DNA of 64,000 bases from an uncultured Gammaproteobacteria bacterium (GTDB lineage Bacteria > Cyanobacteriota > Vampirovibrionia > LMEP-6097), in assembly GCA_964438425.1 (NCBI GenBank), contig CAYTKM010000001.1, forward strand, positions 752,401 to 816,400. The letters run 5' to 3'. Positions 1 to 64,000 of the stretch are shown here, in pieces. A program made the translations under genes and the position numbers. Position 1 is the stretch's first letter; each line of letters opens with the position of its first letter. Under the pieces are notes generated by a model. The model saw only the letters and a list, made by a program, of their open reading frames with translations, searched no databases and had not been told where the DNA came from.

Positions 1-941
1 GTCAGCTGAGCTGAAGCTTTAGAATTAACTTCGTTATTAATTTCTCTTGCTATCTTTTGTGCTTGCTGGATTAAGTTAAAGGCTGAATAAGGTGGCTCAC
101 CCAAAACTTCAGCTAAGTTTTTTGAATTAGTGTATAAAAATCTTTGTTTTTTAAATAGAGCCAAGCTTTGAGTTAGCTGATTATAATGATGAAAATTAAT
201 AAAGGTTCTAATAAGTTCTTGATCTATTACGCTGCGATCTTCTTTAGTTTTACTAAAAGCAACATTGGCTTGTTCATTTAGTTTCTCGATATTCGTATAC
301 AACTCTTTAAAACTATATTTACGGTGCTTATCTGGCACTAAATTAATGGCTTCAGCACTTTCAGGATTATTGATTAAAAAGATTTTCAGCTCACTGACTG
401 AGCGCGCATCTAATAAAGACCTAAATAGCCATTCACTTGCACTAAGCTTGCCAGCTTTACTTTTACCAGAATATCTAAGTAAGGTAGCCTTAGCATAAGT
501 AGATAATGGTTTGATGCGACCTTCAGCTAAAATCTGGATACTTTCAAACTCGTTTTTTATTTCTTTACTAAAAGCGAGTGGAGTAGATTCTGTATCCACA
601 CTTGAATTTGTAGTTTTGTGACTACTAATATTACTATTATTTGCTAAATCTCTATCTGTGTTTTCAGAATTTATATCACCATTTGAAATTTCAAGCTCAG
701 CAGAGTTAGGCTTGGTGGTGCCTTGTGGCTTTTTAGCTGATTTCAGCTGCTCCCTAGCGCTTTCATTAGCTACAGTTTTTTGGAAATTATTTCCTATATG
801 TCCTTCTTGAGCTAGTACTGGCAAGAAAAATACTAGGCTTAACAAAAAACTTAAAGCTAAAGTGAATTTTCTTATGTCAGCTGTAAGCTTAAAATTTAGA
901 AAGTTCCGGTTAGCTTTAGTATTTAGTAAATTATCAGGCAT
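1..941 (-). CDS. Partial CDS (N-terminal ~313 aa; continues beyond window start): signal-anchor followed by hydrophilic domain; possibly N-terminal extension of a CcsA/ResC-type cytochrome c biogenesis protein given position immediately downstream of ResB-like gene
   Basis: Manual reverse-strand translation from ATG at 939-941 (MPDNLLNTKANRNFLNFKLTADIRKFTLALSFLLSLVFFLPVLAQ...) is open to position 1 with no stop; not in ORF track because it is open-ended; start overlaps ResB-like stop by 8 bp (ATGCCTGA), implying operon; function inferred from synteny only. Confidence 0.4.
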   Translation of the reverse strand, partial: MPDNLLNTKANRNFLNFKLTADIRKFTLALSFLLSLVFFLPVLAQEGHIGNNFQKTVANESAREQLKSAKKPQGTTKPNSAELEISNGDINSENTDRDLANNSNISSHKTTNSSVDTESTPLAFSKEIKNEFESIQILAEGRIKPLSTYAKATLLRYSGKSKAGKLSASEWLFRSLLDARSVSELKIFLINNPESAEAINLVPDKHRKYSFKELYTNIEKLNEQANVAFSKTKEDRSVIDQELIRTFINFHHYNQLTQSLALFKKQRFLYTNSKNLAEVLGEPPYSAFNLIQQAQKIAREINNEVNSKASAQL

Positions 942-2055
942 ATTTTTTCTTTATAAAGTTCCAGAATTGAATTATAAAGTGTAATAATAATCCCAAACTA
1001 GCTAGAATGCCAGAAATATAGGGGATTAACCTACCTTTATTTTCTACTACTGCAAGTGCACTAAATTCACTACCATCAGGTGCGATACCATATGAAGACT
1101 GAAAGAAAGTGAACTCTTTATATCTAAATGGTTTATTCATAGCAACAGTCAAGGTTCTAGCAGGTTTTAAAGGATCTTCAATGACAGCTATTTTACTCTC
1201 ATAAGATTTTGCAATCTGCGTACCTTGGTGCAGGTCACGTTTAACATCTAGCAGCTGAATAGAAACTGGTAATTGGTATTCACGTCTTTTCAGGACGAAT
1301 TCAAAACTGTTTTTAGCCTGTTTATTTTTACTCGCTAAAGTCAGACGACGTTGATTTAAGGCAGATAAATAGTATTCTTGCTGGGCGTCTTTAATGATTA
1401 CTACTGGAAAATTACTTTCCTGCTCTTTTTTTAATGGTAATTCTTTAGCGATGATGCCAGCAAATGGGGTATCAAACACCTGACCATTTTCATAATAGTC
1501 TTTAACTTCAAGTGAGCCCTGACTTAAAAAAGATAAAGGTTTTTCACTTAATAGTTGCTTGTTTAGAGGAAACTCATATTCACGGTATTTAGCTTCACTG
1601 CTAGCATTGGTTGGGTTATGTTCATGCCTGATTTCAAGTAGCCAGTCATAATAGTCAGCGCTGATATTAGAAGCTTCGCCCTCTTTTAATTGTAAAAGTG
1701 ATTCCTTACTAAAATTTAAATTGTAAAAACCGCCAACCAGTAAAATAATAATCCCCAGATGGATAAACCATAAGCCTAGTTTAGACCAGCGGTATTGGAA
1801 AATTAAGATCAAAGATAAACTGAGATTTATAAATAGCACCCACATCACAGATCTAACTGTAGGTAGGGGTATACCTTTAAAAGTGAAAAAAAATGAATTA
1901 AAAAATTTTTCTTGGGCTAAATATAAGCCATGCTCGGCTTGATATACAGTACCCCAAATGATAAGTAAGCTTAAAACAATCAGTGAAATAAGTGTAAGCT
2001 TAATCGAGCTAAGAAATTTAATAATAGGCAGCTTCAGTAAGTCAGCTCGCTTCAT
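934..2055 (-). CDS. ResB/CcsB-like cytochrome c biogenesis membrane protein (system II), ~373 aa from internal Met MKRADLL
   Basis: Topology typical of ResB/Ccs1: three N-terminal TM helices (LTLISLIVLSLLIIWGTVY, VMWVLFINLSLSLILIF, LGLWFIHLGIIILLVGGFY), large hydrophilic domain, C-terminal TM (IPYISGILASLGLLLHFIIQFW). ORF-track start at 2133 runs through the tRNA gene, so the start was moved to the ATG at 2053-2055. Confidence 0.5.
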   Translation of the reverse strand: MKRADLLKLPIIKFLSSIKLTLISLIVLSLLIIWGTVYQAEHGLYLAQEKFFNSFFFTFKGIPLPTVRSVMWVLFINLSLSLILIFQYRWSKLGLWFIHLGIIILLVGGFYNLNFSKESLLQLKEGEASNISADYYDWLLEIRHEHNPTNASSEAKYREYEFPLNKQLLSEKPLSFLSQGSLEVKDYYENGQVFDTPFAGIIAKELPLKKEQESNFPVVIIKDAQQEYYLSALNQRRLTLASKNKQAKNSFEFVLKRREYQLPVSIQLLDVKRDLHQGTQIAKSYESKIAVIEDPLKPARTLTVAMNKPFRYKEFTFFQSSYGIAPDGSEFSALAVVENKGRLIPYISGILASLGLLLHFIIQFWNFIKKKYA

Positions 2056-2059
2056 AAAA

Positions 2060-2147
2060 TGGCGGACAGAGAGGGATTCGAACCCTCGGTAGCTTGCGCT
2101 ACGACGGTTTTCAAGACCGCTCCGATAAACCACTCCGGCATCTGTCC
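2060..2147 (-). tRNA. tRNA-Ser (anticodon UGA), 88 nt, type II with long variable arm, CCA encoded
   Basis: Manual fold of reverse complement: 7-bp acceptor stem GGACAGA/TCTGTCC, D-arm, anticodon stem GCGGT/ACCGT with loop CTTGAAA (anticodon TGA), variable arm hairpin GTAGC-GCAA-GCTAC, T-arm GAGGG-TTCGAAT-CCCTC, discriminator G, 3' CCA. Confidence 0.85.
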
Positions 2148-2206
2148 ATTAACTATAATACAATATTTAGCTATGAAAATTGACCCCTTTTATTTTGTTT
2201 AAATAA

Positions 2207-3172
2207 TTGACAAAATTAAGCCTTATGTCGAAGGTTAAACTAAGCTTGCTGCTGCTGATGTTTTTAATAAGTACTAGTCTAAAAGTAAGTGCTCAAAACA
2301 ATTTCAATCTTTTTAGTCAACCTCAGCTTAAAAGTGATTATAAAAAATCAGGCGCTAGTAGTCGCGCGCAATATAGAGCAAGTAACTATACCAAGACTAA
2401 TAAATACACCAGTGCAAGAGCGAGTAACAACTCTGCTAGTTTTAAGTGGCAAGCCAAAAGTGCTAGTTCTACTTATTCTAATGCGAACTATAGAAATAAA
2501 AAAAATTACACTGAAAAGCTAAATGACCGTATAAATACTAAAAAACGCCAAATAGCTAGAGCTCGCAGCCAGCCATCAAACCGCATAAATATAAAACATA
2601 AGCCAGCTCACTTTGAAAATGACAACTTAGCTAAAAATCAGTCTGCTTATATCGATTCCAAGCACTTACATAAAAGATATATCGCTAAAAACTTGGCAGA
2701 TTATACTTATGATGGCACTTTACCTGATGCGGTAGTTTGGCACGCACCTAAGATTAACAACTTTCACTATTTAAATTATGAAAATATCTATTTTAAGGCT
2801 CTTAAATTAGCTAAAACAGCTTTAGCAAATAAAGATACTAATTTTAAAGAAGCTTTAGCTCATAGTGAACGTAAACTCAATTTTTTAGGTGACAAGTTGC
2901 TCACTAATGGTAGGCAGGCAAAGGAATATCACCACGAAAATATAACTAAGCTAGAAGCTTGTTTATTTAATTACATGCTCGCACGAGGAGCTGAGCCGCA
3001 GCCATTATTTATCAAGCTAAAAAATAATCGAAAAAGTCTGATCGGTAAAGTATCTAAGCTTCAAAAACTTGAAGATTTATTAAATTCAAGAAATACTTTA
3101 ATGGTTTTGACTGATAGTAGCTGCGCGCGCAATGTAGCAAATTTATTTATTACTAAGGTGAGCCTGAGATGA
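2207..3172 (+). CDS. Hypothetical secreted protein, Ser/Asn/Lys/Arg-rich low complexity, N-terminal signal peptide
   Basis: ORF 321 aa; signal-like N-terminus MTKLSLMSKVKLSLLLLMFLISTSLKVSAQ; first of four overlapping/abutting ORFs directly downstream of tRNA-Ser; no recognisable domain. Confidence 0.55.
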   Translation: MTKLSLMSKVKLSLLLLMFLISTSLKVSAQNNFNLFSQPQLKSDYKKSGASSRAQYRASNYTKTNKYTSARASNNSASFKWQAKSASSTYSNANYRNKKNYTEKLNDRINTKKRQIARARSQPSNRINIKHKPAHFENDNLAKNQSAYIDSKHLHKRYIAKNLADYTYDGTLPDAVVWHAPKINNFHYLNYENIYFKALKLAKTALANKDTNFKEALAHSERKLNFLGDKLLTNGRQAKEYHHENITKLEACLFNYMLARGAEPQPLFIKLKNNRKSLIGKVSKLQKLEDLLNSRNTLMVLTDSSCARNVANLFITKVSLR

Positions 3173-3792
3173 GATTTTTAATGCTACTTAGTGTATATAT
3201 TTGCTTTTACGCTCCAGTTTTAGCAGATTTAGCTATCAACGAAGGTGAGTTTACTGTTATAGACTTCGGTAATTTCAATTTAATAAAAAAAGTAACTCTA
3301 AGTTCACCTGAAATAGCGCGCGTTTACCAATTATCAGGCTCCGCCAAGCTAGATAAACATAGTGTACTGGTGCTTCAAGGTCTAAAAACCTTTGGTGAAA
3401 CTGATCTGCTGGCTTACTCTGAGCTTAAAATTCATAGTTTCCACCTGGAAGCTGGCTCTACTAGTAAATCTAAAGTTAAGGTAATTGATCCTTTAAATAC
3501 TAAATTTATTAAACGCGGCACTATTAAAGCTGCGCCTGGTCGATTAATCTTAGTTAATTCGCGCTACCCAGTAAACGAATATGTGCTTGCTGCAAAAGCT
3601 GAGCTCGTTACCTATAAAAAACTACTAGAGCCTAGTGACCCTAACTACCTAAAGACTTTCGGGCTAGCAACGGCCGACTTTGAAGGTCTAACTGAGCTGA
3701 TTATCGCAACTTCTGGTGGTGTATTTATGTATGAACTGGATATAAAAAATGCTTATAAAGGAGAACATCAAAGTGAACTTGAGATTTATTAA
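3169..3792 (+). CDS. Hypothetical secreted protein
   Basis: ORF 207 aa with signal-like N-terminus (MRFLMLLSVYICFYAPVLA); start overlaps upstream stop (ATGA), indicating translational coupling. Confidence 0.55.
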   Translation: MRFLMLLSVYICFYAPVLADLAINEGEFTVIDFGNFNLIKKVTLSSPEIARVYQLSGSAKLDKHSVLVLQGLKTFGETDLLAYSELKIHSFHLEAGSTSKSKVKVIDPLNTKFIKRGTIKAAPGRLILVNSRYPVNEYVLAAKAELVTYKKLLEPSDPNYLKTFGLATADFEGLTELIIATSGGVFMYELDIKNAYKGEHQSELEIY

Positions 3793-4555
3793 GTTTAAAT
3801 ATAAGCGAGGATTACCACTGATGATAGTAATTTTACTAATGCTCATGAACCTGAATCTATCAGCTATTAAAGCTAGCGAATTTCAGCCTCACAAACTAAA
3901 GCCAACCCTAGATTCTAGTTTAACTAAAGGGCGCACCTACAACCATTACAGAAAAGTTAGGGTGATTGCACCTAAAGCTAAAAAATATCCTGTTTTAGAT
4001 CAGTTTGAAAGCTTACTTTACCCAGAAAAAGACTTTTCTAAGGAGCATCCAGGAAAAAGACTTGAGCGCATTGAAATCGCGGTGCTCGGTGATAAGCTAG
4101 ATAACGGTTTAACTATTAAAGAGAGGGTAAATAAGGTTAAAAGTGAGCTGATATCATGGCAAATCGCTAATGAAATGACTTTAGATATTCTTGAGTTACC
4201 TGAATATGAAAAACAAAACACTGCTAGCCACGCTTATATTTCTAGGCTACATAAGCAAGATAGCCTAAAGCAGCCAGCTACTAACAATTTCATCGCTCAG
4301 CACTATAATGCGACTGGTCTAAGTCCTGAAGAAGCGCGTGAACTCAGGCAATACCTTGAAGATCAAGAAAAACAATTGCAAGATCAGTTCACGCGTCAGC
4401 GCGAAGAGCTAACTCAGCTTGAAAATCAGCAGCGAGGTAATAGGCGCGCGCGCAGCCAAGAGCAGTTTACCCGTAATACTGGCGTGCCTTTACTAAGAAG
4501 GCTCGGTGATGAGACGATTAGTCGAATTTTTAATAAAAGGAACAGGTTTTTTTAA
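3749..4555 (+). CDS. Hypothetical membrane/secreted protein with Gln/Arg/Glu-rich coiled-coil C-terminus; true start may be the internal Met near 3821 (MIVILLMLMNL)
   Basis: ORF 268 aa; hydrophobic segment MIVILLMLMNLNLSAIKA; C-terminal heptad-like EQEKQLQDQFTRQREELTQLENQQ. Confidence 0.5.
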   Translation: MLIKENIKVNLRFIKFKYKRGLPLMIVILLMLMNLNLSAIKASEFQPHKLKPTLDSSLTKGRTYNHYRKVRVIAPKAKKYPVLDQFESLLYPEKDFSKEHPGKRLERIEIAVLGDKLDNGLTIKERVNKVKSELISWQIANEMTLDILELPEYEKQNTASHAYISRLHKQDSLKQPATNNFIAQHYNATGLSPEEARELRQYLEDQEKQLQDQFTRQREELTQLENQQRGNRRARSQEQFTRNTGVPLLRRLGDETISRIFNKRNRFF

Positions 4556-5031
4556 TGTTAAAGAGTTATAAAATAAATTTGAAACTAATAAGGTTACTGA
4601 ATCTAAAAAAATCACATTTGCTCTTCGTGATATTAACAAGCTTAAACTTCGTTTCAAGCTATGTTCAGGTGCAAGCTTATCATGCTGAAGGTGTAGTTAT
4701 TAATCGAGGAGGCGCGCGTAGCGTGTACAATCAGTCATTTTTGGATAAAAAATATATCTTTGATCACGCGCCATCGGCGCGCGCGCCTGAAAATTACCAG
4801 ACACCCAGCGCTAATTTAGCTACGCTGGGCGCGCCAAGTTTAAGCCGGCGCGCAACTCCAGTAACTTCGCGCCAGCCAGCTATTGTCGCCAGACAGGTTT
4901 CAAAAGCGCCAATGGCGCGCATCAAACCTAAAAAAATGGTTCATGATCCTTACAGTGACTCAGAGTGGGGAGATTTTGCTGAAGAGTTAGATGAGAGTTT
5001 AAATGTAAACGCGAAACTATTAAATTATTAA
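4555..5031 (+). CDS. Hypothetical membrane-anchored protein rich in Ala-Arg/Arg-Ala dipeptides encoded by GCGCGC
   Basis: ORF 158 aa; ATG overlaps previous stop (TAATG); N-terminal TM (LLFVILTSLNFVSSYVQVQA); contains seven GCGCGC-containing tracts. Confidence 0.5.
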   Translation: MLKSYKINLKLIRLLNLKKSHLLFVILTSLNFVSSYVQVQAYHAEGVVINRGGARSVYNQSFLDKKYIFDHAPSARAPENYQTPSANLATLGAPSLSRRATPVTSRQPAIVARQVSKAPMARIKPKKMVHDPYSDSEWGDFAEELDESLNVNAKLLNY

Positions 5032-5339
5032 TGTCTTGACTAATGTCCTTCATTGAAATATTTATAAGCTGCTAGCGCGATTTTAGCTGTTTGATAACAA
5101 CTTTAACTATCTAAAACAACTTTAGTTATTTGAAAACAAACCAGCTTATCTATTAATAGATTCTTAAGATAGTTTCTTTACTTACTATAAATTATCTTTG
5201 ATAAATATTTTATTTGTTACTTTTACTAAAGAATAATCATTCAGCTTTATAAAGTAATAAAAGGTGCGCTCACTTAAAAATAAATTGCTACTAGCTAGCG
5301 GTCTTTTTAAAATTCTAGAGTACAATATAAATATTAACG

Positions 5340-6062
5340 ATGCAAATTCACGATAAAGAAAGCTTTGTAAACCAAATGTTCACGCGTATAGCGAATAAAT
5401 ATGATCGTTTGAACAATATTATGACACTTGCTTTGCATAAGGGCTGGAAACAAGAGACTATTAAACATGCTTCTTCTAGCATGAAGCAATTAAATAAGGC
5501 TAAAATTTTAGATTTATGTACTGGTACTGGTGATATGGCATTTATGTGGGCTAAAGATCCGCGTGTGAATAAGGTTATCGCCGTAGATACCTGCAAGCCG
5601 ATGCTAGATGTCGCTGATGACAAACTAGCTGGTAAATATAAAAAGTTTGCTGATAAGATCACTTTTATGGAAGGTGATGCGATCGAATTACCTTTCCCAG
5701 ATGATACTTTCGATGCAGTCACTGTAGGTTTTGGTTTAAGAAACGTAGTAGATTTGCAAGCTGCAATTTATGAAATATATCGTGTGCTAAAACCTGAAGC
5801 TTACGTTGCTAGTTTAGATTTAGGGCACCCAGAAAGTGCATTACCTAGCATGGCATATAAAAAAGGCTTTTTAAAATTAGTTCCTTGGATGGGCGCAGCT
5901 TTTGCTAAGGATAAAGAAGCTTATGCTTATTTGACTGAGTCTTTAAAAACTTGGCCTACCCAAAAGGCACTTTCTCAAATGTTCTGGGATTCGCAATTTA
6001 CGCGTAGCTATTATAAAAATGTAATGGCAGGTACCATAGCGATTGTAGTTGCTCAAAAGTAA
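5340..6062 (+). CDS. ubiE: Ubiquinone/menaquinone biosynthesis C-methyltransferase UbiE/MenG
   Basis: Family signature MFTRIANKYDRLNNIMTLALHKGWK and SAM-binding motif ILDLCTGTGDMAF; 240 aa typical length. Confidence 0.85.
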   Translation: MQIHDKESFVNQMFTRIANKYDRLNNIMTLALHKGWKQETIKHASSSMKQLNKAKILDLCTGTGDMAFMWAKDPRVNKVIAVDTCKPMLDVADDKLAGKYKKFADKITFMEGDAIELPFPDDTFDAVTVGFGLRNVVDLQAAIYEIYRVLKPEAYVASLDLGHPESALPSMAYKKGFLKLVPWMGAAFAKDKEAYAYLTESLKTWPTQKALSQMFWDSQFTRSYYKNVMAGTIAIVVAQK

Positions 6063-6064
6063 AG

Positions 6065-6574
6065 TTATTTTTTAGAGACCATGTATCTTTCGGAAGCTCT
6101 TTTAAGTAGACTTACTGTTTCGTATGAACCTACATACTTACCATTTAAATATTGCTTGACAAAACTATGAGCTACTAAATTATCTTTTTCATCAAAAGAA
6201 AAATAATCTTTAGATCTAACAAACCACTTCTTGTCATAGGCTTGAATAAACTTATTATCGCGCTCCCAGACTAGACTATCGTCATTATTGAGTTTGACGC
6301 GTCTGTTTGCTACTAAATCCCAATGAGTGTCTAGCCACTCAGGTTTAACTTCACCTTGATTGAATTTAAACCTGAGTGTTGACTTTGCACTTTTTCCTTC
6401 TTCCACGTATTTGCAATCTGAGGAGATTACATATGTCTGTGCTTTCCATGTACCAAAGAGTCTCAAGTCTATTACATTAGTTGAAGCGCCGAGCTTAAAG
6501 GGAGTAAGTGCCTGGCAGCCTGAACTTAAAGTTAGACATGATAGTAAAGCTAAAACTGTAAACTTTTTGAACAT
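6065..6574 (-). CDS. Hypothetical lipoprotein
   Basis: ORF 169 aa; signal peptide with lipobox MFKKFTVLALLSCLTLSSGC. Confidence 0.55.
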   Translation of the reverse strand: MFKKFTVLALLSCLTLSSGCQALTPFKLGASTNVIDLRLFGTWKAQTYVISSDCKYVEEGKSAKSTLRFKFNQGEVKPEWLDTHWDLVANRRVKLNNDDSLVWERDNKFIQAYDKKWFVRSKDYFSFDEKDNLVAHSFVKQYLNGKYVGSYETVSLLKRASERYMVSKK

Positions 6575-7009
6575 GATTATCTCCTCTTTTTAATAACGGT
6601 AACTAGCTACTAATCTTTAAAAATAGTTAGTATAAAAAATAATTTTGTTTAATTATCTTTACTAAATTAATGCCCGCGATTAATAATAAGACGCGTAGAC
6701 TATTAACCTAAAAATAGTTTTTAAAGTGGTTTTTATGGCTTAAAAATCAAATTAAGCGCTAAGGTTCCCTAAATATTAGCTTTATTTCTATAATTTTAAA
6801 CTTTAGATAAGACTTTAGCTGATATTGAAGGAGAACCATCTCAGGGTTTTAAGCACAAGGCAAGGCTGAGCCACCAGGCACCGTTTTTAAAACGGATTGA
6901 ATTATGCTTTATCGTATAGCTTACACGGAAACTATTAAAAGATCTCTCTCTGTTAGATTAGATACAATTTATACTAAGATATCTTCTAGTATTAGTAATG
7001 TTTATAGCC

Positions 7010-7882
7010 TTATAATAACTCTTTAAAATCTTTAAAGTGCGGTGCAGTTAAGGTTAGCTTTTCTTTAGTAATAGGGTGCAAAAAGGTAAGTGAACGTGCA
7101 TGTAGCATATGGCGTCTCGGGTTTACTTTAGAGTTAAAACGCTCTGCATAAAAGCTATCACCTAAAATAGGATGCTTTAAGTATTCCATATGTACTCTAA
7201 GTTGATGAGTACGACCTGTTTGTGGGGCTAGCTTTACTAAACTATAATTTTTATCAGGGTAAGTTTTTATTAGTTCAACTTTAGTAATGGCACGCTTGGC
7301 TACTTTAATTTTAGAATCAGCTTTTTTTACGCCCCATTTTTGAAAATGTTTGCTTTTAGAAAGTAAGACTAACTCATTGTCGATAGTTTGCTTGAAACTA
7401 GCTGAAACTAAGCCGTCTATTAAAGCTTCATAAGTTTTAGTAATTTTTTTTTCTTCAAATAGCTCAAAAAAATACTTGCTGATTTCTTTATTCTTACTAA
7501 AAATTATTACACCACTAGTATCTTTATCCAGTCTATGTACTGGTTCGATAAAAGAATACTCTTTAGTATCTATAAAAGCCTGATGTAAGTTTGAAGCTTT
7601 AGTACTAGTATTTAAACAGGGGAATAATGGCTCTTTATTATAGGCTATAAAATAATCATCTTCGTATATAATAAGTTCTTTTTTTATGGTAAGCTTCGCT
7701 CGCGCAGTTTTTTTAACAAGCTTAAAGCTGACTTTATCTTTTGCTGGGTCGATTTTACGAGTAATAAATCTTTCGATTTTGCCATTAACTAAACAATTAC
7801 CTTGCTCTAGTGAGTACTTCAAAGTTTTAGTACTTTCATCGGGGTGTTTTCTTTGCAAAAATTGTTTTAAAGTAACTTTCAT
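7010..7882 (-). CDS. RluA-family RNA pseudouridine synthase with N-terminal S4-like domain (RluC/RluD-like)
   Basis: Catalytic motif HRLDKDTSGVIIFSKN; N-terminal S4-like segment ending LVNG; 290 aa. Confidence 0.8.
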   Translation of the reverse strand: MKVTLKQFLQRKHPDESTKTLKYSLEQGNCLVNGKIERFITRKIDPAKDKVSFKLVKKTARAKLTIKKELIIYEDDYFIAYNKEPLFPCLNTSTKASNLHQAFIDTKEYSFIEPVHRLDKDTSGVIIFSKNKEISKYFFELFEEKKITKTYEALIDGLVSASFKQTIDNELVLLSKSKHFQKWGVKKADSKIKVAKRAITKVELIKTYPDKNYSLVKLAPQTGRTHQLRVHMEYLKHPILGDSFYAERFNSKVNPRRHMLHARSLTFLHPITKEKLTLTAPHFKDFKELL

Positions 7883-8255
7883 TTAATTCATATAAAATTT
7901 CATAGAGCTAAAGGTCATAAGTTTAATAACTTGCTCTAGAAACAAAAAGTCAAATCTTAGAAGCTATCTTCTTAGAGACAATTATCAGAACTACCAGGCT
8001 CTACCCTAAAATCTTAACATCAAATAATAAACTTTAAGTGCTAGTTAGTCTGAGCTTGAATTACTTGTTTTAGTTAATCTGGGATAAAAATAGCTGGAAA
8101 CTAAAAAAAACAGCTGCAAAAGTGTCTAAGTCTAGCTACTAAGTTTAGACATGATAAAGTTAGGGTAAGTAATATAATAAGTAATTAGCTTCAATCAGCT
8201 TTTATAAGATATATGCTTAAGATAAAGAACATTAATACTAAAGGAGCAAACAAAG

Positions 8256-9714: not shown

Positions 9715-9718
9715 CTAG

Positions 9719-56432: not shown

Positions 56433-59400
56433 ATGTCCGTTAACACTACCTTAAACACTCCTGAAATTTTTCATAAGCCATTATTCATAAAGCAACTAGC
56501 TAAAAAAGTGATCATTTATGACGGTGCTATGGGCACTAACCTCTTTAGTTATGATCTAAGTATAGAAGATTATGGTGGCGCCGAATATGAAGGCTGCCCT
56601 GAAAACCTAAACTATACTAAACCTGAGATAATTCAGGAAATTCATCGAAATTTTTATCAAGCTGGCGCTGATATTGTCGAAACTAATACCTTTGGTGCTT
56701 CGATTATTACGCTAGCTGAGTATAACCTTCAAGACAAGTGTAGAGAAATTAATATGCTCGCCGCTGCGCTGGCTCGCGAAGTTGCAGCTGAGTTCACCGC
56801 AGCCGAGCCCGCTAAGCCACGTATGGTCGCGGGCTCGATCGGTCCTGGAACTAAGCTGCCATCTTTAAATCATGTCGGCTTTGATGAACTTAAAGAATCA
56901 TATAAAGTGCAGATTAGAGCTTTAGTGGATGCGCTGGTTGATGTGATTTTAATTGAAACCTGTCAGGATCCTTTGCAGATTAAAGCCTGCATGATCGCTT
57001 GTTTTGAAGCTTTTCAGGATATTGAAGCTGAAAATAGTGAGCTTACTAATGAGCAGTTAGCTGAAAAATACCCGAATGCTGTCATCTATGAAAATGATAC
57101 CAGTGGGCGCGCAGGTCTTTATCAAAGATTTCGAGTGCCACTACAAGTGCAGGTGACAGTCGAGCAAATGGGAACTTTGCTAGTAGGCTCAGAACTTTCA
57201 AGCGCACTTACGACTGTTTCAGCTTACCCGATAGATATTTTCGGTATGAACTGTGCGACTGGTCCTAAAGAAATGCAGGAGCATTTGCAGTATCTGTCAC
57301 TAAACTCTCCATTCCAGATTAGTTGTTTGCCGAATGCTGGTATTCCAGAGAATGTATGTGGTCACGCGCATTTCCCGCTTAAGGCAGGTGAATTTACAGA
57401 ATACATGACTAAATTCATAGATAAGTATCAGCTAAGGGTAGTCGGTGGTTGTTGTGGTACTAGCTACGACCATATAAAGATGCTAAATGATGCTTATGAG
57501 GCTAGTGCTACTGCTAGTAAAGATCAAGCTAGGCTAGATTCGCTTTCGGAAACTAGCACTCTAAACCAGGACTTAGATAAAAACGATGTTTCTGATGAAG
57601 TCCAGAATGAAAGCAGCCATAGTAACTTTGCATGTGAAAGTACGAAAAATAATCTAACCAGTCCACAAAGCACTGAAAATAAACCTATATATAAAGACTC
57701 TGAAACTTTAATGGAAGCTTCAGCCCAGCCGATGGGGCGTAGACTTGAAAGTAACATTTTTAACTATGTTTCAAGTGTTTACGGTAATTTAGATATGGAC
57801 TTGGAGACTAAGCCGATTATAGTCGGTGAAAGAACTAATGCTAATGGCTCTAAAAAATTCCGTGATTTGCTGGCGGCTGAAAACTACGAAGAGATTATAG
57901 ATCTGGCTAAAGAGCAGTTAGCTGAAGGCGCGCAAATTTTAGATCTTTGTGCTGCGTTTGTCGGACGCGATGAGTCGCGTGATATGCAGGAGATTTTAAA
58001 AAGAGCTAACACTGCAGTTAATATTCCGATTATGATCGATAGCACAGAATCCAATGTGATTGAGGATTCCTTAAAGCTCATTTCAGGTAAATCGATTATT
58101 AATTCGGTAAACCTGGAAGATGGCGAAGAGCGCGTAGCTGAGATCGCTAAGCTTTGTAATAAATATGGCGCAGCGCTAGTAGTTTTAACTATTGATGAAA
58201 AGGGCATGGCTAAATCGATCGAAGATAAAGTTAGTATTGCTAAGCGTTTGTATGATCTGTTAGTTAACAAGCATGGTATGCGACCGTATGACCTGATTTA
58301 TGACACGCTAACTTTTACTTTGGGTTCAGGAGATGAGGAGTTTCGTCCAGCTGGCATTAATACCATCGAAGCGATTCGCGAGTTAAAGCGCGCCTTGCCT
58401 CACGTTAAAACTATTTTAGGGGTCAGTAACATTTCCTTTGGTTTAGATGCTAAATTGCGCCCAGCACTTAATTCTGTATTTTTATTTGAGGCGGTGAAAG
58501 CTGGCTTGGATATGGCGATTGTTAATAATAAAAAGATTATTCCTTTACATAAGATAGATGACGAGCTTAAGAAATACTGTTTAGACTTAGTCTATGACAA
58601 GCGTGAATTTAATGATCAAGAGGAAACTACTTACGATCCGCTAACTAAACTTATCGGTCTTGCTGAAAATGTAACTGCGTTTGATAACTCCCAGAAAAAT
58701 CCTTATGAAAAACTAACGACTGAAAAAACATTGGAACAAAGAATCATCGATGGTAATAAAACTAATATTGATGTTGACTTGCAGTTAGCTTTAGATAAAG
58801 GTTATAAACCACTTGAAATCATTAACGGCTTTTTAATGGATGGTATGAAAATTGTCGGTGAGCGTTTTGGAGCTGGTGAAATGCAGTTACCGTTTGTCTT
58901 ACAGTCCGCTACCACCATGAAAGCTGCGGTTGCGTACTTAGAGCCGTTTATGGAAAAGCTGGATGCTTCTAGTCATAAAGGCTCAATGGTACTTGCGACT
59001 GTTAAAGGTGACGTGCATGATATTGGTAAAAATCTGGTAGATATCATTTTAAGTAACAATGGCTATAAAGTGCATAATTTAGGTATCAAACAGCCTGTTG
59101 AAGAGATTTTGAAAGCTGTTGAAGCTCACAAACCTGACTTAGTAGCGCTTTCTGGTCTGCTGGTTAAATCCACTTTAATCATGAAGCAGAATCTGGAGGT
59201 TTTTAATGACAGGAATATAGACGTGCCAGTTATTTTAGGTGGCGCGGCGCTAACTAGAAAGTTTGTTGAGCAGGATTGTGCGGGGCTTTATAATGGTGAA
59301 GTTTATTATGGTGTAGATGCCTTTACTGATCTTGATATCATGGAAGATTTATGCGTGCATAAGATCTCAGCAGCCGAGGTGCGCGAAAAATATCATAAAG

Positions 59401-60335
59401 TGAAAAGTGCTGATAATGACGATCAGGCTTATGAAGTTGTCAGTGAGCAAGAGGAAGAAGAAAATCTACGCAAAGCTATAGAGTTTACTAGTAAACTCTC
59501 TGAAACTAAGATTCTAACCCCAGCTGAAGTGCCTGTGGCGCCGTTTTATGGTTTTAAACATTTAGGCAGTCAGGACATACCTTTAGGTGAAATCTGGCAT
59601 TACTTAAATTTAGATGCCATGATCATCGGACAGTGGCGTATGGGTAAAGGTAAGATGAGCGTTGAGGAGTACGCTGAGCACCGCCGACATGTAATTATGC
59701 CTATTTTAGAGCGTTTGAAACGTGAAACACTTGCTAGTAATTGGTTGCAGGCTCAAGCTGCTTATGGTTATTTCTATGCTAAAGTTGATCCTGAAAATCC
59801 TAATAAACTAAATATATATGATGAGCAGCGTGAAAATATCATCGAAACTTTTGTCTTTCCGCGTCAGTCAGAGAAAAAGAATTTATGCCTGACTGATTAT
59901 TTCAGATTAAGTGATCCTGAAGCCTTTAATTTAGTCGGTTTTCAAATCGCGACCATCGGCGAGTCGGCAGCGAACTTCGTGCAAAAACTCTACACCAGTG
60001 ATGAGTATAGTGAATATTTATATTATTATGGTTTCGCCACTGAATGCACTGAAGCTACAGCTGAGTGGGTGCACGCTAGAGCGCGCCGTGAATTAGGTTT
60101 CGGGGCTGAAGATGTGGCTGAGGTACCTAAGTTACTGCGTGGTGGCTATCATGGTATGCGCTTTAGTTTTGGTTATCCAGCTTGCCCGCGCCTAGAGGAC
60201 CAGGAACAGCTCTTTAGATTATTAAAGGCTGATGATTTAGGTCTTAAGCTGAGTGAAGAGTGGCAGATTCACCCTGAACATAGTACAAGTGCGATCGTGA
60301 TTCATCATCCTGAGGCTAAGTATTTTAATATTTAA
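56433..60335 (+). CDS. metH: Cobalamin-dependent methionine synthase MetH with ~75-aa low-complexity linker insertion (1300 aa)
   Basis: Hcy-binding domain (GGCCGT region VVGGCCGTSYDHI), pterin-binding domain, B12-binding DVHDIGKN (DxHxxG), C-terminal AdoMet activation domain; low-complexity insertion SKDQARLDSLSETSTLNQDLDKNDVSDEVQNESS... between Hcy and pterin domains. Confidence 0.95.
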   Translation: MSVNTTLNTPEIFHKPLFIKQLAKKVIIYDGAMGTNLFSYDLSIEDYGGAEYEGCPENLNYTKPEIIQEIHRNFYQAGADIVETNTFGASIITLAEYNLQDKCREINMLAAALAREVAAEFTAAEPAKPRMVAGSIGPGTKLPSLNHVGFDELKESYKVQIRALVDALVDVILIETCQDPLQIKACMIACFEAFQDIEAENSELTNEQLAEKYPNAVIYENDTSGRAGLYQRFRVPLQVQVTVEQMGTLLVGSELSSALTTVSAYPIDIFGMNCATGPKEMQEHLQYLSLNSPFQISCLPNAGIPENVCGHAHFPLKAGEFTEYMTKFIDKYQLRVVGGCCGTSYDHIKMLNDAYEASATASKDQARLDSLSETSTLNQDLDKNDVSDEVQNESSHSNFACESTKNNLTSPQSTENKPIYKDSETLMEASAQPMGRRLESNIFNYVSSVYGNLDMDLETKPIIVGERTNANGSKKFRDLLAAENYEEIIDLAKEQLAEGAQILDLCAAFVGRDESRDMQEILKRANTAVNIPIMIDSTESNVIEDSLKLISGKSIINSVNLEDGEERVAEIAKLCNKYGAALVVLTIDEKGMAKSIEDKVSIAKRLYDLLVNKHGMRPYDLIYDTLTFTLGSGDEEFRPAGINTIEAIRELKRALPHVKTILGVSNISFGLDAKLRPALNSVFLFEAVKAGLDMAIVNNKKIIPLHKIDDELKKYCLDLVYDKREFNDQEETTYDPLTKLIGLAENVTAFDNSQKNPYEKLTTEKTLEQRIIDGNKTNIDVDLQLALDKGYKPLEIINGFLMDGMKIVGERFGAGEMQLPFVLQSATTMKAAVAYLEPFMEKLDASSHKGSMVLATVKGDVHDIGKNLVDIILSNNGYKVHNLGIKQPVEEILKAVEAHKPDLVALSGLLVKSTLIMKQNLEVFNDRNIDVPVILGGAALTRKFVEQDCAGLYNGEVYYGVDAFTDLDIMEDLCVHKISAAEVREKYHKVKSADNDDQAYEVVSEQEEEENLRKAIEFTSKLSETKILTPAEVPVAPFYGFKHLGSQDIPLGEIWHYLNLDAMIIGQWRMGKGKMSVEEYAEHRRHVIMPILERLKRETLASNWLQAQAAYGYFYAKVDPENPNKLNIYDEQRENIIETFVFPRQSEKKNLCLTDYFRLSDPEAFNLVGFQIATIGESAANFVQKLYTSDEYSEYLYYYGFATECTEATAEWVHARARRELGFGAEDVAEVPKLLRGGYHGMRFSFGYPACPRLEDQEQLFRLLKADDLGLKLSEEWQIHPEHSTSAIVIHHPEAKYFNI

Positions 60336-60657
60336 CTAGTTTTTGTTTTAATAATTTGAAGTGTTTATTTGATATTTGAAACTGATAGTCCGCAAATAGG
60401 CACTAACTAGTCGAGCTTCTTGGCGCATACGCTTAATGATTTCCAAGATATTTTTCACTTGAAAAAATTAGTTCTCTCTAGATGTTTTTGCACTTTTGTA
60501 CTTAAATTTTCATGGAAATACCAAAATTTCTTTCTTTTTTTAGAGATTTAGCTTAAATATAAGTAAAAATGGCACTTAATTAAACATAATATGCTCCAAT
60601 GGAGTAAATGTGCTGCGCCATGACATATAAATTTTAAAAACTATAGCTGTAAATTAA

Positions 60658-60909
60658 GAAACTAGTGCTCCCAATTTGAAAACTAGTGCTTCCAATTTGG
60701 AAACTAGTGCTGTAACTTCGAAAACTAGTGCTCCCACTTAAGAAACTAGCGCTCCCACTTTAGAAACTAGTGCTCCCACTTAAGAAACTAGTGCTCCCAC
60801 TTTAGAAACTAGTGCTCCCACTTTGGAAACTAGTGCTCTCAATTTGGAAACTAGTGCTCTCAATTTGGAAACCAGTGCTGTAAATTAAGAAACTAGCGCT
60901 GCAACTTCA
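60658..60909. repeat. Tandem array: 12 exact-period copies of a 21-bp unit GAAACTAGTGCT-CCCACTTTA (conserved 5' 12-mer, variable 3' 9-mer), non-coding
   Basis: Units read directly at 60658, 60679, 60700 ... 60889 (every 21 nt); degenerate extra copy at ~60641; stops in all six frames. Confidence 0.9.
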
Positions 60910-61070: not shown

Positions 61071-64000
61071 TTATAAAGGCATAACGTTTTCATGCTTTAA
61101 ATCGTCTTGAAGATTAGTTTGAATTGGTAAATATTCAAAGATTTGATTGATTTTCTGATTAACCAAATCGTCAAAATTTGAATCCGAATCTGAAAGAAGG
61201 CTTTCAAGACCATCGTGCTTTTCTTGACTATGGAATTTATATCTATTGTCGTCTAGTACTCCTTTTAGTGGTTTTTTCAAAAATTCAAGGTCTATATAAT
61301 GAATTTTAAAACCCAAATTCTTGCTAACTTTATCATAAGTGTATATAGCTGTAAGTAGTATTCTGAAATTAGCAATAAACAGTACGGCTAAATCTTTTAG
61401 ATTGTAATAATTATTTCTTATATACCAACCTGATGAATTACCTTGATCAGCAAATCTCTCTTTTTCATATAAAATTCCAAAATATTCAGCATAAGCTTTC
61501 AAATAATACTTAACTTGATTATATCCTTGATTTACTACATATTCATTAGGTTGACTTGTTTCAAGCTGAGATGCCTTTTTTTGCAAAGCCTGTAAATGAG
61601 ATTTAATTTCACATACTGTTTCGTGAAATTGATCTGAGTTTTGGTTAGATATTAGTTCTTCTATTCTCTCTATAAATCTATCTACTTTTTGAGTATCGAA
61701 TACATCATGCATAGGTCGCTTACATCTAAAAGCATTATTTAGAGAAGTGAATGACGTACTTTCAAACTCATTAAGCCTATTACCTATTTGGTGGGGGGCA
61801 CTATGAATATCGGGTTCATCAGACATGACAACACCATTTAATAATGTCCATTGCTTAATATCTGGGTCAAGTGTAAAACGAGTCTTAAATTTAGTAAGTT
61901 CATCTTTAAAATCCTTAATATTAGTAGTAGTCCGGAAATCCTCGTCGGTGATGATTCTACGATTTAATAGTTCATCTATATCAGACTTCAAATTATCCAA
62001 ATACTCTCCTGATAAAGTTTGTTGTATGCAAAGCAGTGTTTTAGAAAGTAACCTATTAAACTGTTTTTGTAAAATGTTATACATCACACTTCTATCTTCA
62101 GGTGGATTATTTAAGGATTCATCAGAAGTATTAAGTAGAGTAGTATATTGATTGAAACCAAAATTTGAATTAAAAATAAATTGATCTAAGGTATGAAAGT
62201 ATATCTGAGAAATATTGAATGTGCTGGCATTTTGATTCCAAGACTGTAGTAATTCGTTTCCAAGGTCGTATTCAAGAAAGCCAATTAACAACATATCGTA
62301 AAGTTGCTTTTTTTCTGGCTCATTGTAATTGCTATAAGTGTAATTTAAAATTACGTCTAATTTAGCTAATAGGTTGGAGCCAACTTCAAGCTCCCAATTG
62401 TTGTAGCTAGCTGGTACATGTTCAGGTTTTGTTATATCTTTAACAATATTTTCAGTCGTGTAGGTCTTATATTTATCTGAAAAAAACTTAAAAAAGTTAT
62501 ATAAAATTTTCTTTTCACCAGTAACATTGTAAATCTTTATATCCTTAAGACTAGTGGTGTTAAGAATAGCAATTTTAGCTGGATCACGATAGTAAAAATT
62601 CATACGATTAACTATCTCTAAGTTAGTAGATTTTATTTCTTTATAATTTGGACACAAAACAGTATTAAATTCATCTATTAACTCTAAATCATCTATACGA
62701 TCTTTAAGATTTTTACAAAAACAATGAAGTAATATTTCGACTGGAAAATAAATGTTTTTTTCCTTTAGAGAGATATCTAAAAAATCAAAGCAGATTTTTT
62801 CAAGTATTCTATACGAATTTATGTATTTGGATAATAGCGAAAAAGCTGTAATTAGCTTTTTTTCTTTCATTCGAGAATTATTTTCAAACAGCTGCTTAAC
62901 ATTTTCAAGAACTTCTAGTCTATTTTTTAAACTAAAGTAAGTACTTTCATAAGAAATTAACTTAATCGCTCTTTCTATAACTTTAATAACTAAACTTTCA
63001 CTACTAAATTTTACTTGGATCTCTTTATCAAAAATCTTTTCTAAATATATTGATGCTTGATTATCCATATTTGAATTTGCGTTTAAACTATTTTCAATAG
63101 AGCTATTAATTAGTAATTTATCGTATGCTACGAAAATGTAAGTATTAACGAAATCTAGCCTATTTCTGATTAAACCTAAAATATTACGGATATCTTCCTT
63201 GTCTAGTAGACGATCAATATTATCTATGAAAATAAATATTTGCCTGTTATTTTCGAAGATTTTGTTATTGATGTCTCTAAGATTTTGATTAATATTGTCA
63301 TTAATTAGAAATGAATTAAAGTAACTGATCCATGGGTGCAGGGAAGATATTTGAGCTATATAACGTTGTAGATTTTTATTGATGGTGGGTATCTCGCTAA
63401 TTAGTTTGTCTTCAATCTGATCTAAGAAATTTCGAATTAGAAGATCACTTTTTAGAAGATCACTTTTTGAATCGTATTGCCATAAGTCAAAATCTATAAT
63501 AATAGGGTCTGTGCACGCTAAAAAATTTAAAGCTGGACTGTTAGTCTGACCTTCAATAATACTTTTAATTGCTTGCATGTAACTTGACTTGCCAGTCCCC
63601 CAGCCACCAGTGATACCTGTAATAAAACTGTTTCTGGTTTGCGATGATATTTCTTCTTTTAAAGGAGATTCACTCTTATTATTTATTAAGTTATATATAG
63701 AAGTCACATGCTGGAGAACCTCTATTTTAATAGATTCGTTGTAATTTGAAAAACTATAAAGCTGATTTAGGCTTGTGACTTTAGTGCTTTGAGTTTCATT
63801 TAAATAATTACCTAAGTCTATAAAATTCACATAGTCTTCTTCACTGTTAATAGCATTACTTTGATTTAAACTCTCACGATCATCTAAGTATTCTAGTAGA
63901 ATATCGAGTGCACTTTCAGTTGGTACTTTAGTCGCTTTTATATTGTTTGATAGATAAGTTATAAAACCTATAGGTAATGGCAGGATAAATAAAATTAAAT
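61071..64000 (-). CDS. KAP-family P-loop NTPase, large (>975 aa), partial: N-terminus lies beyond window end
   Basis: KAP Walker A GITGGWGTGKSSY (G-x-W-G-x-GKS) and Walker B-like IFIFIDNIDRLL; no TM insertion in the NTPase domain; ~600-aa C-terminal region without recognisable motifs; manual translation shows the frame stays open upstream of the ORF-track GTG (63828-63830) through position 64000. Confidence 0.8.
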   Translation of the reverse strand, partial: LILFILPLPIGFITYLSNNIKATKVPTESALDILLEYLDDRESLNQSNAINSEEDYVNFIDLGNYLNETQSTKVTSLNQLYSFSNYNESIKIEVLQHVTSIYNLINNKSESPLKEEISSQTRNSFITGITGGWGTGKSSYMQAIKSIIEGQTNSPALNFLACTDPIIIDFDLWQYDSKSDLLKSDLLIRNFLDQIEDKLISEIPTINKNLQRYIAQISSLHPWISYFNSFLINDNINQNLRDINNKIFENNRQIFIFIDNIDRLLDKEDIRNILGLIRNRLDFVNTYIFVAYDKLLINSSIENSLNANSNMDNQASIYLEKIFDKEIQVKFSSESLVIKVIERAIKLISYESTYFSLKNRLEVLENVKQLFENNSRMKEKKLITAFSLLSKYINSYRILEKICFDFLDISLKEKNIYFPVEILLHCFCKNLKDRIDDLELIDEFNTVLCPNYKEIKSTNLEIVNRMNFYYRDPAKIAILNTTSLKDIKIYNVTGEKKILYNFFKFFSDKYKTYTTENIVKDITKPEHVPASYNNWELEVGSNLLAKLDVILNYTYSNYNEPEKKQLYDMLLIGFLEYDLGNELLQSWNQNASTFNISQIYFHTLDQFIFNSNFGFNQYTTLLNTSDESLNNPPEDRSVMYNILQKQFNRLLSKTLLCIQQTLSGEYLDNLKSDIDELLNRRIITDEDFRTTTNIKDFKDELTKFKTRFTLDPDIKQWTLLNGVVMSDEPDIHSAPHQIGNRLNEFESTSFTSLNNAFRCKRPMHDVFDTQKVDRFIERIEELISNQNSDQFHETVCEIKSHLQALQKKASQLETSQPNEYVVNQGYNQVKYYLKAYAEYFGILYEKERFADQGNSSGWYIRNNYYNLKDLAVLFIANFRILLTAIYTYDKVSKNLGFKIHYIDLEFLKKPLKGVLDDNRYKFHSQEKHDGLESLLSDSDSNFDDLVNQKINQIFEYLPIQTNLQDDLKHENVMPL

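Follow-up and report, generated by a model that had tools for sequence, protein, structure and literature searches.

The 64,000 bp of bacterial chromosome analysed here (positions 752,401 to 816,400 of contig CAYTKM010000001.1, hereafter the window; G+C content 34.9 %) contain an excess of the palindrome GCGCGC that is real and far beyond chance. The feature is best described as a set of iterated alternating-GC tracts with GCGCGC as their core word, rather than as a discrete hexameric site, and can be classified as a lineage-specific iterated palindrome of the known highly iterated palindrome (HIP) kind, in a new host lineage. The enrichment is lineage-specific, derived and fairly recent, and alignments with orthologous genes show that the tracts were created by nucleotide substitution, under a pressure strong enough to alter proteins. 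It is tentatively suggested that the tracts are made by a HIP-like ratchet linked to DNA methylation or repair.

Exact counting over the whole window, with overlapping copies included, gave 46 matches to GCGCGC (0.72 per kb), which merge into 35 separate alternating-GC tracts of 6-11 nt each. Base composition predicts 1.8 matches, much as proposed in an initial annotation of this DNA, which had put the chance expectation at fewer than 1-2 copies while taking the G+C content to be about 30 %, lower than the measured value. The same annotation estimated some 30 occurrences; all 30 positions that it listed lie within 13 nt of a real tract, but this was an undercount, the tracts at 402, 29086, 36392, 54528 and 58388 having been missed. 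Dinucleotide-preserving shuffles of the whole window yielded 5.5 ± 2.6 matches (maximum 13), and the same shuffles confined to 100 bp blocks 9.7 ± 3.2 (maximum 20), the latter being conservative because each tract's own GC and CG steps are kept in place. The over-representation originally claimed therefore holds against composition, global and local shuffles alike. A frame-aware second-order Markov model (the null of Xu et al. 2018) expects 9.8 matches, an observed/expected ratio (O/E) of 4.7, and synonymous-codon shuffles of the 57 called genes, which leave all the proteins and the general usage of codons unchanged, give 4.6 ± 2.2 compared with 41 matches within genes, an excess of around ninefold. 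The initial annotation had also held that a count within twofold of a maximal-order Markov expectation would speak against the feature. Such a fourth-order model expects 34 matches (O/E 1.34), which formally lies inside that range; the ratio is uninformative because the pentamers on which it is conditioned, GCGCG and CGCGC, derive mostly from the tracts themselves. Once alternating runs of at least 6 nt are masked, these pentamers fall close to expectation (16 against 11.3 and 17 against 11.6, respectively). The nulls free of the tracts' own pentamers all fall short of the observed count, by 5-26 fold.

Among all strand-symmetrised hexamers, GCGCGC ranks first against synonymous shuffles (z = 17), followed by CGCGCG (6.8- to 7.3-fold) and GGCGCG/CGCGCC (5.2-fold), and under the frame-aware second-order model it tops all 64 hexameric palindromes. 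On the two strands together GCGCGC is found 92 times, as against 10 for GGCGCC, six for GCCGGC and two for CCGCGG; as the other hexamers made only of G and C are 3-45 times rarer, general clustering of G+C is not the cause. Enrichment over the second-order Markov expectation rises smoothly and steeply with length, from 1.3-fold for (GC)2 to 5.1-fold for (GC)3, 23-fold for (GC)4 and 158-fold for (GC)5, and (CG)n follows the same trend. GC/CG repeats are alone in this among dinucleotide repeats: (AT)n is present at about its expected level, (AC)3 is absent where 9.1 copies are expected, and (CA)3 occurs twice where 10.1 are expected. The window has 11 copies of GCGCGCGC, three of GGCGCGCC and 21 of CGCGCG, the palindrome shifted by one position, and the longest pure alternating tracts reach 10-11 nt. 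Every one of the ten most over-represented 8-mers contains GCGCGC, and two octamers, GCGCGCGC and CGCGCGCG, attain frame-aware O/E values of 18.5 (at 0.17 per kb) and 19.0 (at 0.09 per kb). With the tracts masked, the enrichment of CGCG disappears (1.17-fold) and that of GCGC is only 1.5-fold. The variants of GCGCGC that differ by one nucleotide are all mildly raised, by 1.3-2.7 fold. No extended consensus surrounds the 35 tracts, except that at position -1 G is mildly enriched and A depleted. The unit is not the discrete palindrome first proposed but an alternating-GC run, given that CGCGCG is almost equally enriched. The hexamer is not the core of a longer repeat or a mobile mini-element, there being neither a flanking consensus nor indels relative to orthologues, and the canonical HIP1 word (GCGATCGC) is not itself enriched (one copy against 0.6 expected).

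The excess is a property of the nucleotide sequence rather than of the encoded proteins. GCGCGC matches in called genes occupy all three reading frames (13, 19 and 9), and a further 3-5 lie outside called genes, although that at 402 actually falls within a gene leaving the window and the coding status of that at 29086 is uncertain. At 192 positions the encoded peptide would permit GCGCGC synonymously; 41 of these (21 %) carry it, compared with 2.4 % expected from codon usage, and the three frames hardly differ in the share realised (17, 26 and 20 %). Control palindromes at their own protein-compatible sites have O/E values of 0.4-2.0. Codon choice depends on context: alanine is encoded by GCG in 62 % of cases before CGC and 33 % before C, as against 5-14 % before A, G or T, and arginine by CGC in 40 % of cases after G, as against approximately 10 % after A or T. 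This departs from the general habit of the genome, described correctly at the outset as a preference for AGA and for GCT or GCA: AGA accounts for 38 % of arginine codons and CGC for 18 %, with CGT also favoured, while GCT accounts for 58 % of alanine codons and GCG for 13 %. Presence in all frames and context-dependent codon choice mean that the drive acts on the nucleotide sequence, and, together with the ninefold excess over synonymous shuffles, they bear out the earlier proposal of a DNA-level effect. Composition, codon usage and amino-acid content are excluded as causes by the global and local dinucleotide, synonymous and codon-order shuffles and by the frame-aware second-order model.

Codon-level alignments with orthologues, covering 12 tracts in metH, the adjacent Fe-S gene, murE, aroA, anmK and one ABC ATPase gene, indicate how the tracts arose. 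No indels are associated with the 11 aligned tracts that lie in conserved segments; the twelfth (57107) lies in a variable, gapped segment. Around seven of the 12 are purely synonymous recodings of residues conserved in relatives. For instance, in the Fe-S/CCG-domain oxidoreductase gene (54298-56400, - strand) a (CG)5 tract at 55608-55617 encodes a conserved Arg-Ala-Arg as CGC GCG CGC where relatives have AGA GCA AGG, GCGCGC at 54907-54912 lies in a conserved Ala-Arg-Arg-Ala written GCG CGC CGC GCG instead of GCT CGT AGA GCT, and GCGCGC at 54528-54533 lies in a conserved Gly-Ala-Gln written GGC GCG CAG instead of GGT GCT CAG. A fourth tract in this gene, GCGCGC at 55734-55739, is read AGC GCG CAT (Ser-Ala-His) at a variable position. 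Similarly, a conserved Gly-Ala-Gln in metH (56433-60335, + strand) is encoded by GGC GCG CAA at 57928-57933 (relatives GGT GCT CAA), a conserved Gly-Ala-Pro in anmK (18500-19582, + strand) by GGC GCG CCT at 18915-18920, within GGCGCGCC (GGA GCT CCA in one relative), and a conserved Ala-Arg-Ala-Leu in the ABC ATPase gene (37800-38591, - strand) by GCA CGC GCG CTA, with GCGCGCG at 38156-38162. In aroA, encoding EPSP synthase (35685-37016, - strand), GCGCGC at 36392-36397 is read GGC GCG CAT.

Around five of the 12 aligned tracts are instead accompanied by amino-acid replacements, some at positions invariant in five relatives. In MetH, Lys-Glu-Lys became Lys-Arg-Ala at 58388-58393 (AAG CGC GCC; Lys-Glu/Gln/Asp-Lys in the five relatives) and Ile-Arg-Lys became Ala-Arg-Arg at 60081-60086 (GCG CGC CGT; Ile-Arg-Lys/Arg in the five relatives), and the tract at 57107-57112 encodes Gly-Arg-Ala in a variable segment where relatives have Ser/Thr-Lys-Thr. 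In murE (46389-47912, + strand) a (GC)4 tract at 47508-47515 encodes a conserved Ala-Arg as GCG CGC (relatives GCA AGA) and changes the next residue from Glu/Asp to Ala, such that Ala-Arg-Glu is replaced by Ala-Arg-Ala. No variation in repeat length was seen across four independently assembled contigs. Generic dinucleotide slippage producing phase-variable repeats was rejected, since other dinucleotide repeats are not enriched, lengths do not vary and there are no indels relative to orthologues; slippage by 2 bp would, moreover, frameshift genes.

The comparison set comprised 80 loci from other genomes, including approximately 30 low-GC controls and 20 loci of Melainabacteria type. An excess of GCGCGC is absent from every low-GC locus examined, and the 20 Melainabacteria-type loci contain 0-4 copies per 21 kb or so, at or under the dinucleotide expectation. 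The closest relative found (L085; contig Ga0208364_1000001, 350 kb; 69 % MetH identity) has two copies against 1.2 expected and another (L082) has none, while a more distant one (L086; 54 % MetH identity) has a mild excess of eight against 1.9. When eight tract positions from metH and the Fe-S gene are compared, L082 and L085 share none of them, and L086 shares two, including 57928-57933. The other copies of the window's DNA (L001, L093, L094 and L095) are 99.99-100 % identical to it, with identical contigs in two JGI metagenomes (3300040788, 3300040789) and one Logan assembly and the exact MetH protein recorded on a 929,942-bp contig for which NCBI, JGI and ENA are given as sources; the next relatives show 54-69 % MetH identity. 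Searches of metagenomes, genomes and proteins found no diverged strains, only identical copies or sequences with at most 69 % MetH identity. Judging by MurE (42-52 % identity) and MetH (54-56 %), the nearest genomes are ones that bear the labels Melainabacteria, Gastranaerophilales or Caenarcaniphilales, and the highest MetH identities overall (68-69 %) are to unclassified metagenome-assembled genomes (MAGs); judged from best matches only, the organism probably belongs in or near Melainabacteria. Outside this group, an unrelated Elusimicrobia MAG (L067; JAEWSL010000028.1, positions 1-16797; 45 % G+C) contains 39 alternating-GC tracts with 52 GCGCGC matches and a GpC odds ratio of 1.77. This signature seems to have arisen there separately, and the phenomenon therefore recurs sporadically elsewhere. 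As a separate observation, GCGC is almost wholly missing from several Melainabacteria and Firmicutes relatives (L010, L015, L017, L019, L073 and L076), with examples of 0 copies against 12 expected, 0 against 16.7 and 1 against 34, which suggests restriction pressure of the HhaI type.

Within the window the tracts are spread across about 20 genes unrelated in function, but their distribution is clumped (variance/mean of 1.7 in 2 kb bins, with gaps of up to 10.6 kb), and the occupancy of compatible sites varies among genes (permutation p = 0.001). In a four-gene operon at 2207-5031, 14 of 28 compatible sites (50 %) are realised, and it holds 10 of the 35 tracts. None of its proteins matches a Pfam or NCBIfam family. 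Its first open reading frame (ORF; 2207-3172, + strand) has CGCGCGC at 2363-2369 and (GC)4 at 3123-3130; the second (3169-3792, + strand), also unassigned to a family, has GCGCGCG at 3316-3322; and the third (3749-4555, + strand) has (GC)5 at 4444-4453, contributing to the peptide GNRRARSQ. The last (4555-5031, + strand), whose product is rich in Ala, Arg, Pro and Ser and probably includes a disordered segment, realises seven of 10 compatible sites, with GCGCGCG at 4712-4718, (GC)5 at 4777-4786, and GCGCGC at 4829-4834 (within GGGCGCGCC), 4848-4853 and 4915-4920. A cluster of seven copies had previously been noted at 4440-4920; the cluster exists, but consists of 10 overlapping matches in six tracts, so that 10 of the 46 matches sit in a single 480 bp stretch. 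By contrast, the map-infA-rpsM-rpsK-rpoA-rplQ cluster realises none of 15 compatible sites. Such uneven occupancy is what a drive would produce if strong translational or purifying selection held it back in some genes. Over the 64 kb covered, a short span for judging periodicity, the best period, 10.6 kb, has p = 0.005 against uniform placement but p = 0.52, and so no significance, once clusters are preserved.

These properties could be accounted for by a process resembling that proposed for HIPs, a reading adopted here tentatively, in which the roles of methylation and repair would be as follows. GCGCGC, or the CGCG or GCGC nested in it, would be the target of a cytosine DNA methyltransferase that is specific to this lineage and probably an orphan. 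Mismatch repair biased by methylation would then retain mutations that create or extend sites more often than those that destroy them, as in the ratchet of Elhai (2015). Where the protein permits Ala-Arg, Arg-Ala, Gly/Ser-Ala with a following C, or something similar, GCG, CGC and GGC, all rare codons, are used in such a way that an alternating-GC run results, and at weakly constrained positions the amino acids themselves have changed. Translational and purifying selection would oppose the build-up, which would explain both a ribosomal-protein cluster without tracts and a weakly constrained operon that is half saturated.

The likeness to HIPs suggested in the initial annotation is upheld in that GCGCGC is the top-ranked palindrome, has spread by substitution and is lineage-specific, as are the alternate HIPs. 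The established cases of over-represented short palindromes, Dcm/Vsr in Escherichia coli and the cyanobacterial HIPs, are linked to methylation. The alternate HIPs (GGCGCC, GCsGC and rCCGGy) occur sporadically and accompany matching methyltransferases in single cyanobacterial lineages; the proposed ratchet operates through methylation-directed mismatch repair, and outside HIP1 the word CGATCG is not enriched, just as CGCG is not enriched outside the present tracts (Elhai 2015, PMC4390886). Methyltransferases that form 5-methylcytosine specifically in GCGCGC exist, for example in Neisseria meningitidis (PMC7973814). Several other palindromes are avoided in the window, namely GGCC (11 copies against 57 expected, or 0.19-fold), CTGCAG (1 against 15.6), TGCGCA (3 against 11.2) and CCGG (22 against 36), and glycine is almost never encoded by GGC before a codon starting with C, by which GGCC is avoided. 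Since such palindromes are strongly avoided, the genome is under restriction-modification pressure, and the opposite behaviour of GCGCGC is consistent with its being the target of an orphan methyltransferase.

A number of observations weigh against this reading. Neither a motif scan nor Pfam and NCBIfam searches found a gene for a DNA methyltransferase, Vsr or a restriction enzyme among the 57 genes of the window or in an additional 7.7 kb of flanking sequence (L093, L094). One ORF (6065-6574, - strand; 169 aa) has a sub-threshold match to TaqI_C (PF12950, E = 0.007, 17 bits against a cut-off of 26.5), which could have arisen by chance or could mark what is left of a specificity domain from a methyltransferase or restriction enzyme. 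The signature of Vsr is not seen, in that transition variants of GCGCGC are not depleted (O/E 1.37-1.88, against 1.31-2.66 for transversions), and this, with the large size of the effect, argues specifically against a Vsr mechanism. Nor is there an excess of variants at the outer positions, the intermediates of Elhai's ratchet, as variant O/E is 1.46 for outer, 1.87 for second and 1.64 for third positions. At 4.7-fold over the frame-aware second-order model, the hexamer falls below the level that defines HIP1-rich genomes (at least 0.2 per kb and at least 16-fold by the frame-specific criterion of Xu et al. 2018, which was written for octamers and transfers poorly to a hexamer), the octamers here being enriched about 19-fold. 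The near-equal enrichment of CGCGCG and the smooth rise with length fit a cooperative alternating-GC process as well as they fit a fixed site, the clumped spacing is unlike the even spacing expected of a strand signal for mismatch repair, and Elhai's ratchet is itself an unproven model.

The cooperative behaviour would follow directly if, independently of methylation, a context bias in mutation or repair favoured GpC steps and extended alternating-GC runs cooperatively, leaving neutral tracts checked only by selection on proteins and codons. This is a genuine possibility, if on the unlikely side. The GpC odds ratio is 1.65 overall and 1.95 in spacers, above all the relatives examined (1.2-1.4), and the unrelated L067 combines its alternating-GC abundance with a comparably high ratio. 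Words centred on GpC are also raised in coding regions relative to synonymous shuffles, including AGCT (1.58-fold, z = 14.7), CAGC (1.36-fold), AAGC and GAGC. The smooth dependence on length in both phases of the repeat, the near-reproduction of the GCGCGC count by a fourth-order Markov chain, the concentration of tracts where constraint looks weakest and their absence from ribosomal genes, and the lack of both a methyltransferase in the window and a single-nucleotide-variant signature all sit comfortably with such a bias. The other dinucleotide repeats do not, (AT)n being unremarkable and (AC)3 and (CA)3 depleted, and dinucleotide composition alone predicts only 5.5-9.7 matches. Several tracts, moreover, required 4-6 clustered substitutions, some at residues conserved in five relatives, which is hard for a weak neutral bias to achieve, and to our knowledge no mutational mechanism specifically builds (GC)n through substitution.

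That some MetH positions were overridden despite their conservation (Ile to Ala, Lys to Ala) would be expected if the tracts were instead selected as functional DNA elements, such as sites bound by a protein that organises the nucleoid or chromosome, sites whose methylation state the cell reads, or a tag for recombination or uptake of self DNA, all of them roles under current discussion for HIP1. This is unlikely, even allowing for the 21 % occupancy of compatible sites, the two of eight tract positions held in common with the distant L086, and the evidence that selection maintains HIP1 sites (Xu et al. 2018, PMC5861425). According to a 2024 preprint, HIP1 aids natural transformation in a methylation-dependent manner (10.1101/2024.09.10.611283). 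The distribution is clumped, with gaps of up to 10.6 kb, the apparent period loses significance when clustering is preserved, and, because the closest relatives are not enriched, any function would be very recent. A palindrome of 6 nt offers little specificity as an uptake or binding tag, and tracts of variable length (6-11 nt) without a flanking consensus are unlike a defined protein site.

The clearly intergenic copies of GCGCGC all lie within the stems of two hairpins, which might also be taken to indicate a function. One (15675-15701; 9 bp stem, -20.3 kcal/mol, z = -3.1 on folding) stands between the convergent genes 14866-15507 (+ strand) and glmU (15769-17163, - strand), with the copies at 15677 and 15694 forming its stem. 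The other (45662-45690) is the canonical intrinsic terminator of rpsD, in which a 13 bp stem, with GCGCGC (45685-45690) and its partner GGCGCG at the base, is followed by a run of T on the - strand. Both intergenic hairpins noted initially are hence present. Their location is no evidence of a special role, as any two copies of a palindrome can pair, and with a 6 nt core, no conserved flanks and just these two hairpins, the uptake signal that had been put forward as a candidate role finds no support.

Selection for Z-DNA, or another structure dependent on supercoiling, with effects on transcription or supercoiling itself, is very improbable: (GC)n is the most Z-prone of sequences, but the tracts, at 6-11 nt, are too short to flip from the B to the Z form at physiological superhelicity, for which about 12 nt or more are needed. 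Alternating-GC runs of at least 6 nt are generally suppressed in prokaryotes (PMC4060949), making the excess unusual and potentially indicative of structural use, but other Z-prone repeats, (AC/GT)3 and (CA/TG)3, are strongly depleted, and the tracts are mostly intragenic, occupy all frames and show no relation to promoters in their position. The earlier description of a Z-DNA-prone element accordingly fails. Finally, that there is no real feature, the count reflecting base, dinucleotide or codon composition, G+C-rich patches or a few Ala/Arg-rich proteins, is scarcely credible, for while the maximal-order Markov ratio is low, many matches share one 480 bp stretch and the single-nucleotide neighbours are mildly raised (indicating some G+C clustering), every null lacking the tracts' own pentamers fails, GCGCGC far outnumbers the other G/C-only palindromes, the tracts span many functionally unrelated genes, and nothing similar appears in the low-GC control loci.

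The remaining tracts are distributed along what is an ordinary piece of chromosome. Of its 57 genes, approximately 18 have no family match in Pfam and NCBIfam profile searches; the others include genes of metabolism and the cell wall (ccsA/resB, ubiE, gdh, trpA, glmU, anmK, pyk, purA, aroA, tatD, murE, hisF, metH and the Fe-S/CCG oxidoreductase), flagellar export (fliP, fliQ and a FliI-type ATPase) and translation or transcription (map, infA, rpsM, rpsK, rpoA, rplQ and rpsD). At the left end, GCGCGC at 402-407 is read GCG CGC (Ala-Arg) in a CcsA-like cytochrome-c-assembly gene (- strand) that continues past the window. Further copies are found in glmU (16890-16895, - strand), in a class-I glutamine amidotransferase gene (17881-17886; gene 17787-18443, + strand) and three times in purA (23814-25115, + strand), at 24115-24120, 24481-24486 and 24786-24791, the last within CGCGGCGCGC. 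The copy at 29086-29091, upstream of fliP, falls either in an ORF at 29029-29481 (- strand), where it would be read GCG CGC, or in a spacer. A (GC)5 tract at 34691-34700 lies in a DegT/PseC-type aminotransferase gene (34074-35486, - strand), GCGCGC at 38964-38969 in an ABC permease gene (38768-39565, - strand) and at 44038-44043, within CCGCGGCGCGCC, in a tatD-family gene (43909-44739, - strand), and (GC)5 at 49691-49700 near the 3' end of hisF (48944-49723, + strand), where GCG CGC GCG encodes Ala-Arg-Ala.

A C10 homopolymer at 33164-33173, in the spacer after rplQ, is the sole long homopolymeric run of G or C, and a tandem array at 60652-60900 comprises 11.9 copies of a 21 bp unit (consensus AATTTAGAAACTAGTGCTCCC; 85 % match) in the spacer between metH and a gene for a KAP-family NTPase. 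The latter, a P-loop NTPase of 1089 aa, is cut by the window's end, and is followed by an AAA_16/ATPase_2 gene with 29 % G+C. This region beside metH (61071-64000 in the window and 11531-16040 in L093) may be a defence or mobile island.

The window runs counter to the usual state of prokaryotic genomes, in which alternating-GC runs are normally suppressed (PMC4060949) and short palindromes usually avoided owing to restriction enzymes. The recoding of conserved residues and the changed amino acids in MetH and MurE show that protein-coding sequence is subject to a strong force at the level of DNA. How HIP1 originated and what it does has been a matter of debate for 30 years, between a methylation-directed repair ratchet and selection for chromosome structure or transformation. 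Melainabacteria are the sister group of cyanobacteria, and a case that is independent and apparently recent, in a related lineage that is non-photosynthetic and has unenriched relatives, could help to separate these models. It is possible, though doubtful, that a HIP-type system with GCGCGC/(GC)n as its word arose independently and recently in this Melainabacteria-like lineage, through an orphan cytosine methyltransferase and biased repair. Were this so, it would provide a young natural before-and-after comparison bearing on whether such palindromes originate by selection or by a mutational ratchet. The literature yielded no description of HIP-like words in Melainabacteria. Lineage-specific words of this sort also bias codon-usage and k-mer based binning or the detection of horizontal gene transfer, and the tract word predicts the methyltransferase specificity to be sought in the MAG.

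Among known systems, DNA uptake sequences (DUS/USS) differ from the tracts in being 9-12 nt or so in length and non-palindromic, present at about 1 per kb and often arranged as inverted pairs in terminators. Restriction-site avoidance of the Gelfand and Koonin type concerns short palindromes like those recognised by Type II systems, and GGCC, CTGCAG and TGCGCA are avoided in the window in just this manner. GCGCGC, the site of BssHII, shows the opposite sign, and its enrichment makes an active GCGCGC-cutting restriction enzyme unlikely in this lineage. Avoidance has been documented by Rusinov et al. (2015, PMC4687349), and in N. meningitidis GCGCGC is a restriction-modification motif carrying 5-methylcytosine (PMC7973814). 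Very-short-patch repair by Dcm and Vsr in Escherichia coli, as represented by the account of Bhagwat & McClelland (1992) cited in PMC4687349, offers an example in which a methyltransferase target, CCWGG, is over-represented through biased repair rather than through a selected function, with its T-variants depleted. In the present case the depletion of C-to-T variants is absent, the effect, at roughly ninefold, is far above that in E. coli, and there is no vsr in the window.

HIP1 itself resembles the tracts in being hyper-abundant relative to codon-aware nulls, in occurring in both coding and non-coding DNA, in having been generated by substitution rather than insertion and in lacking any obvious role in the peptide or the RNA (Xu, Lawrence & Durand 2018, PMC5861425). 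It differs as an 8-mer with a central AT, enriched 16-317 fold, that is found across its phylum, conserved between genomes, where it is retained by selection according to the same authors, and periodic along the chromosome (periods of 10-90 kb), whereas the 10.6 kb period seen here is not significant under the cluster-preserving null. The closest parallels are the alternate HIPs, which comprise GGCGCC in Calothrix PCC 7103, GCsGC in Cyanothece PCC 7822 and rCCGGy in Oscillatoria PCC 10802 (Elhai 2015, PMC4390886). Like the tracts, each is a short, G+C-rich palindrome built from GC steps that is the most over-represented word of its length, with the top 8-mers being its overlaps; each is sporadic, present in one lineage and not in its relatives, at a density of about 0.5-0.7 per kb and within genes in any frame; and the nested shorter word, here CGCG, is not enriched outside the full motif. 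The present example is set apart by its non-photosynthetic, Melainabacteria-like host of 35 % G+C, by the lack of a cognate methyltransferase in the window and its flanks, by a hexamer enrichment of 4.7-fold over a second-order Markov model as against the 15-fold or more reported for GGCGCC, and by a word that extends into variable runs of (GC)3-5 with the shifted CGCGCG also enriched.

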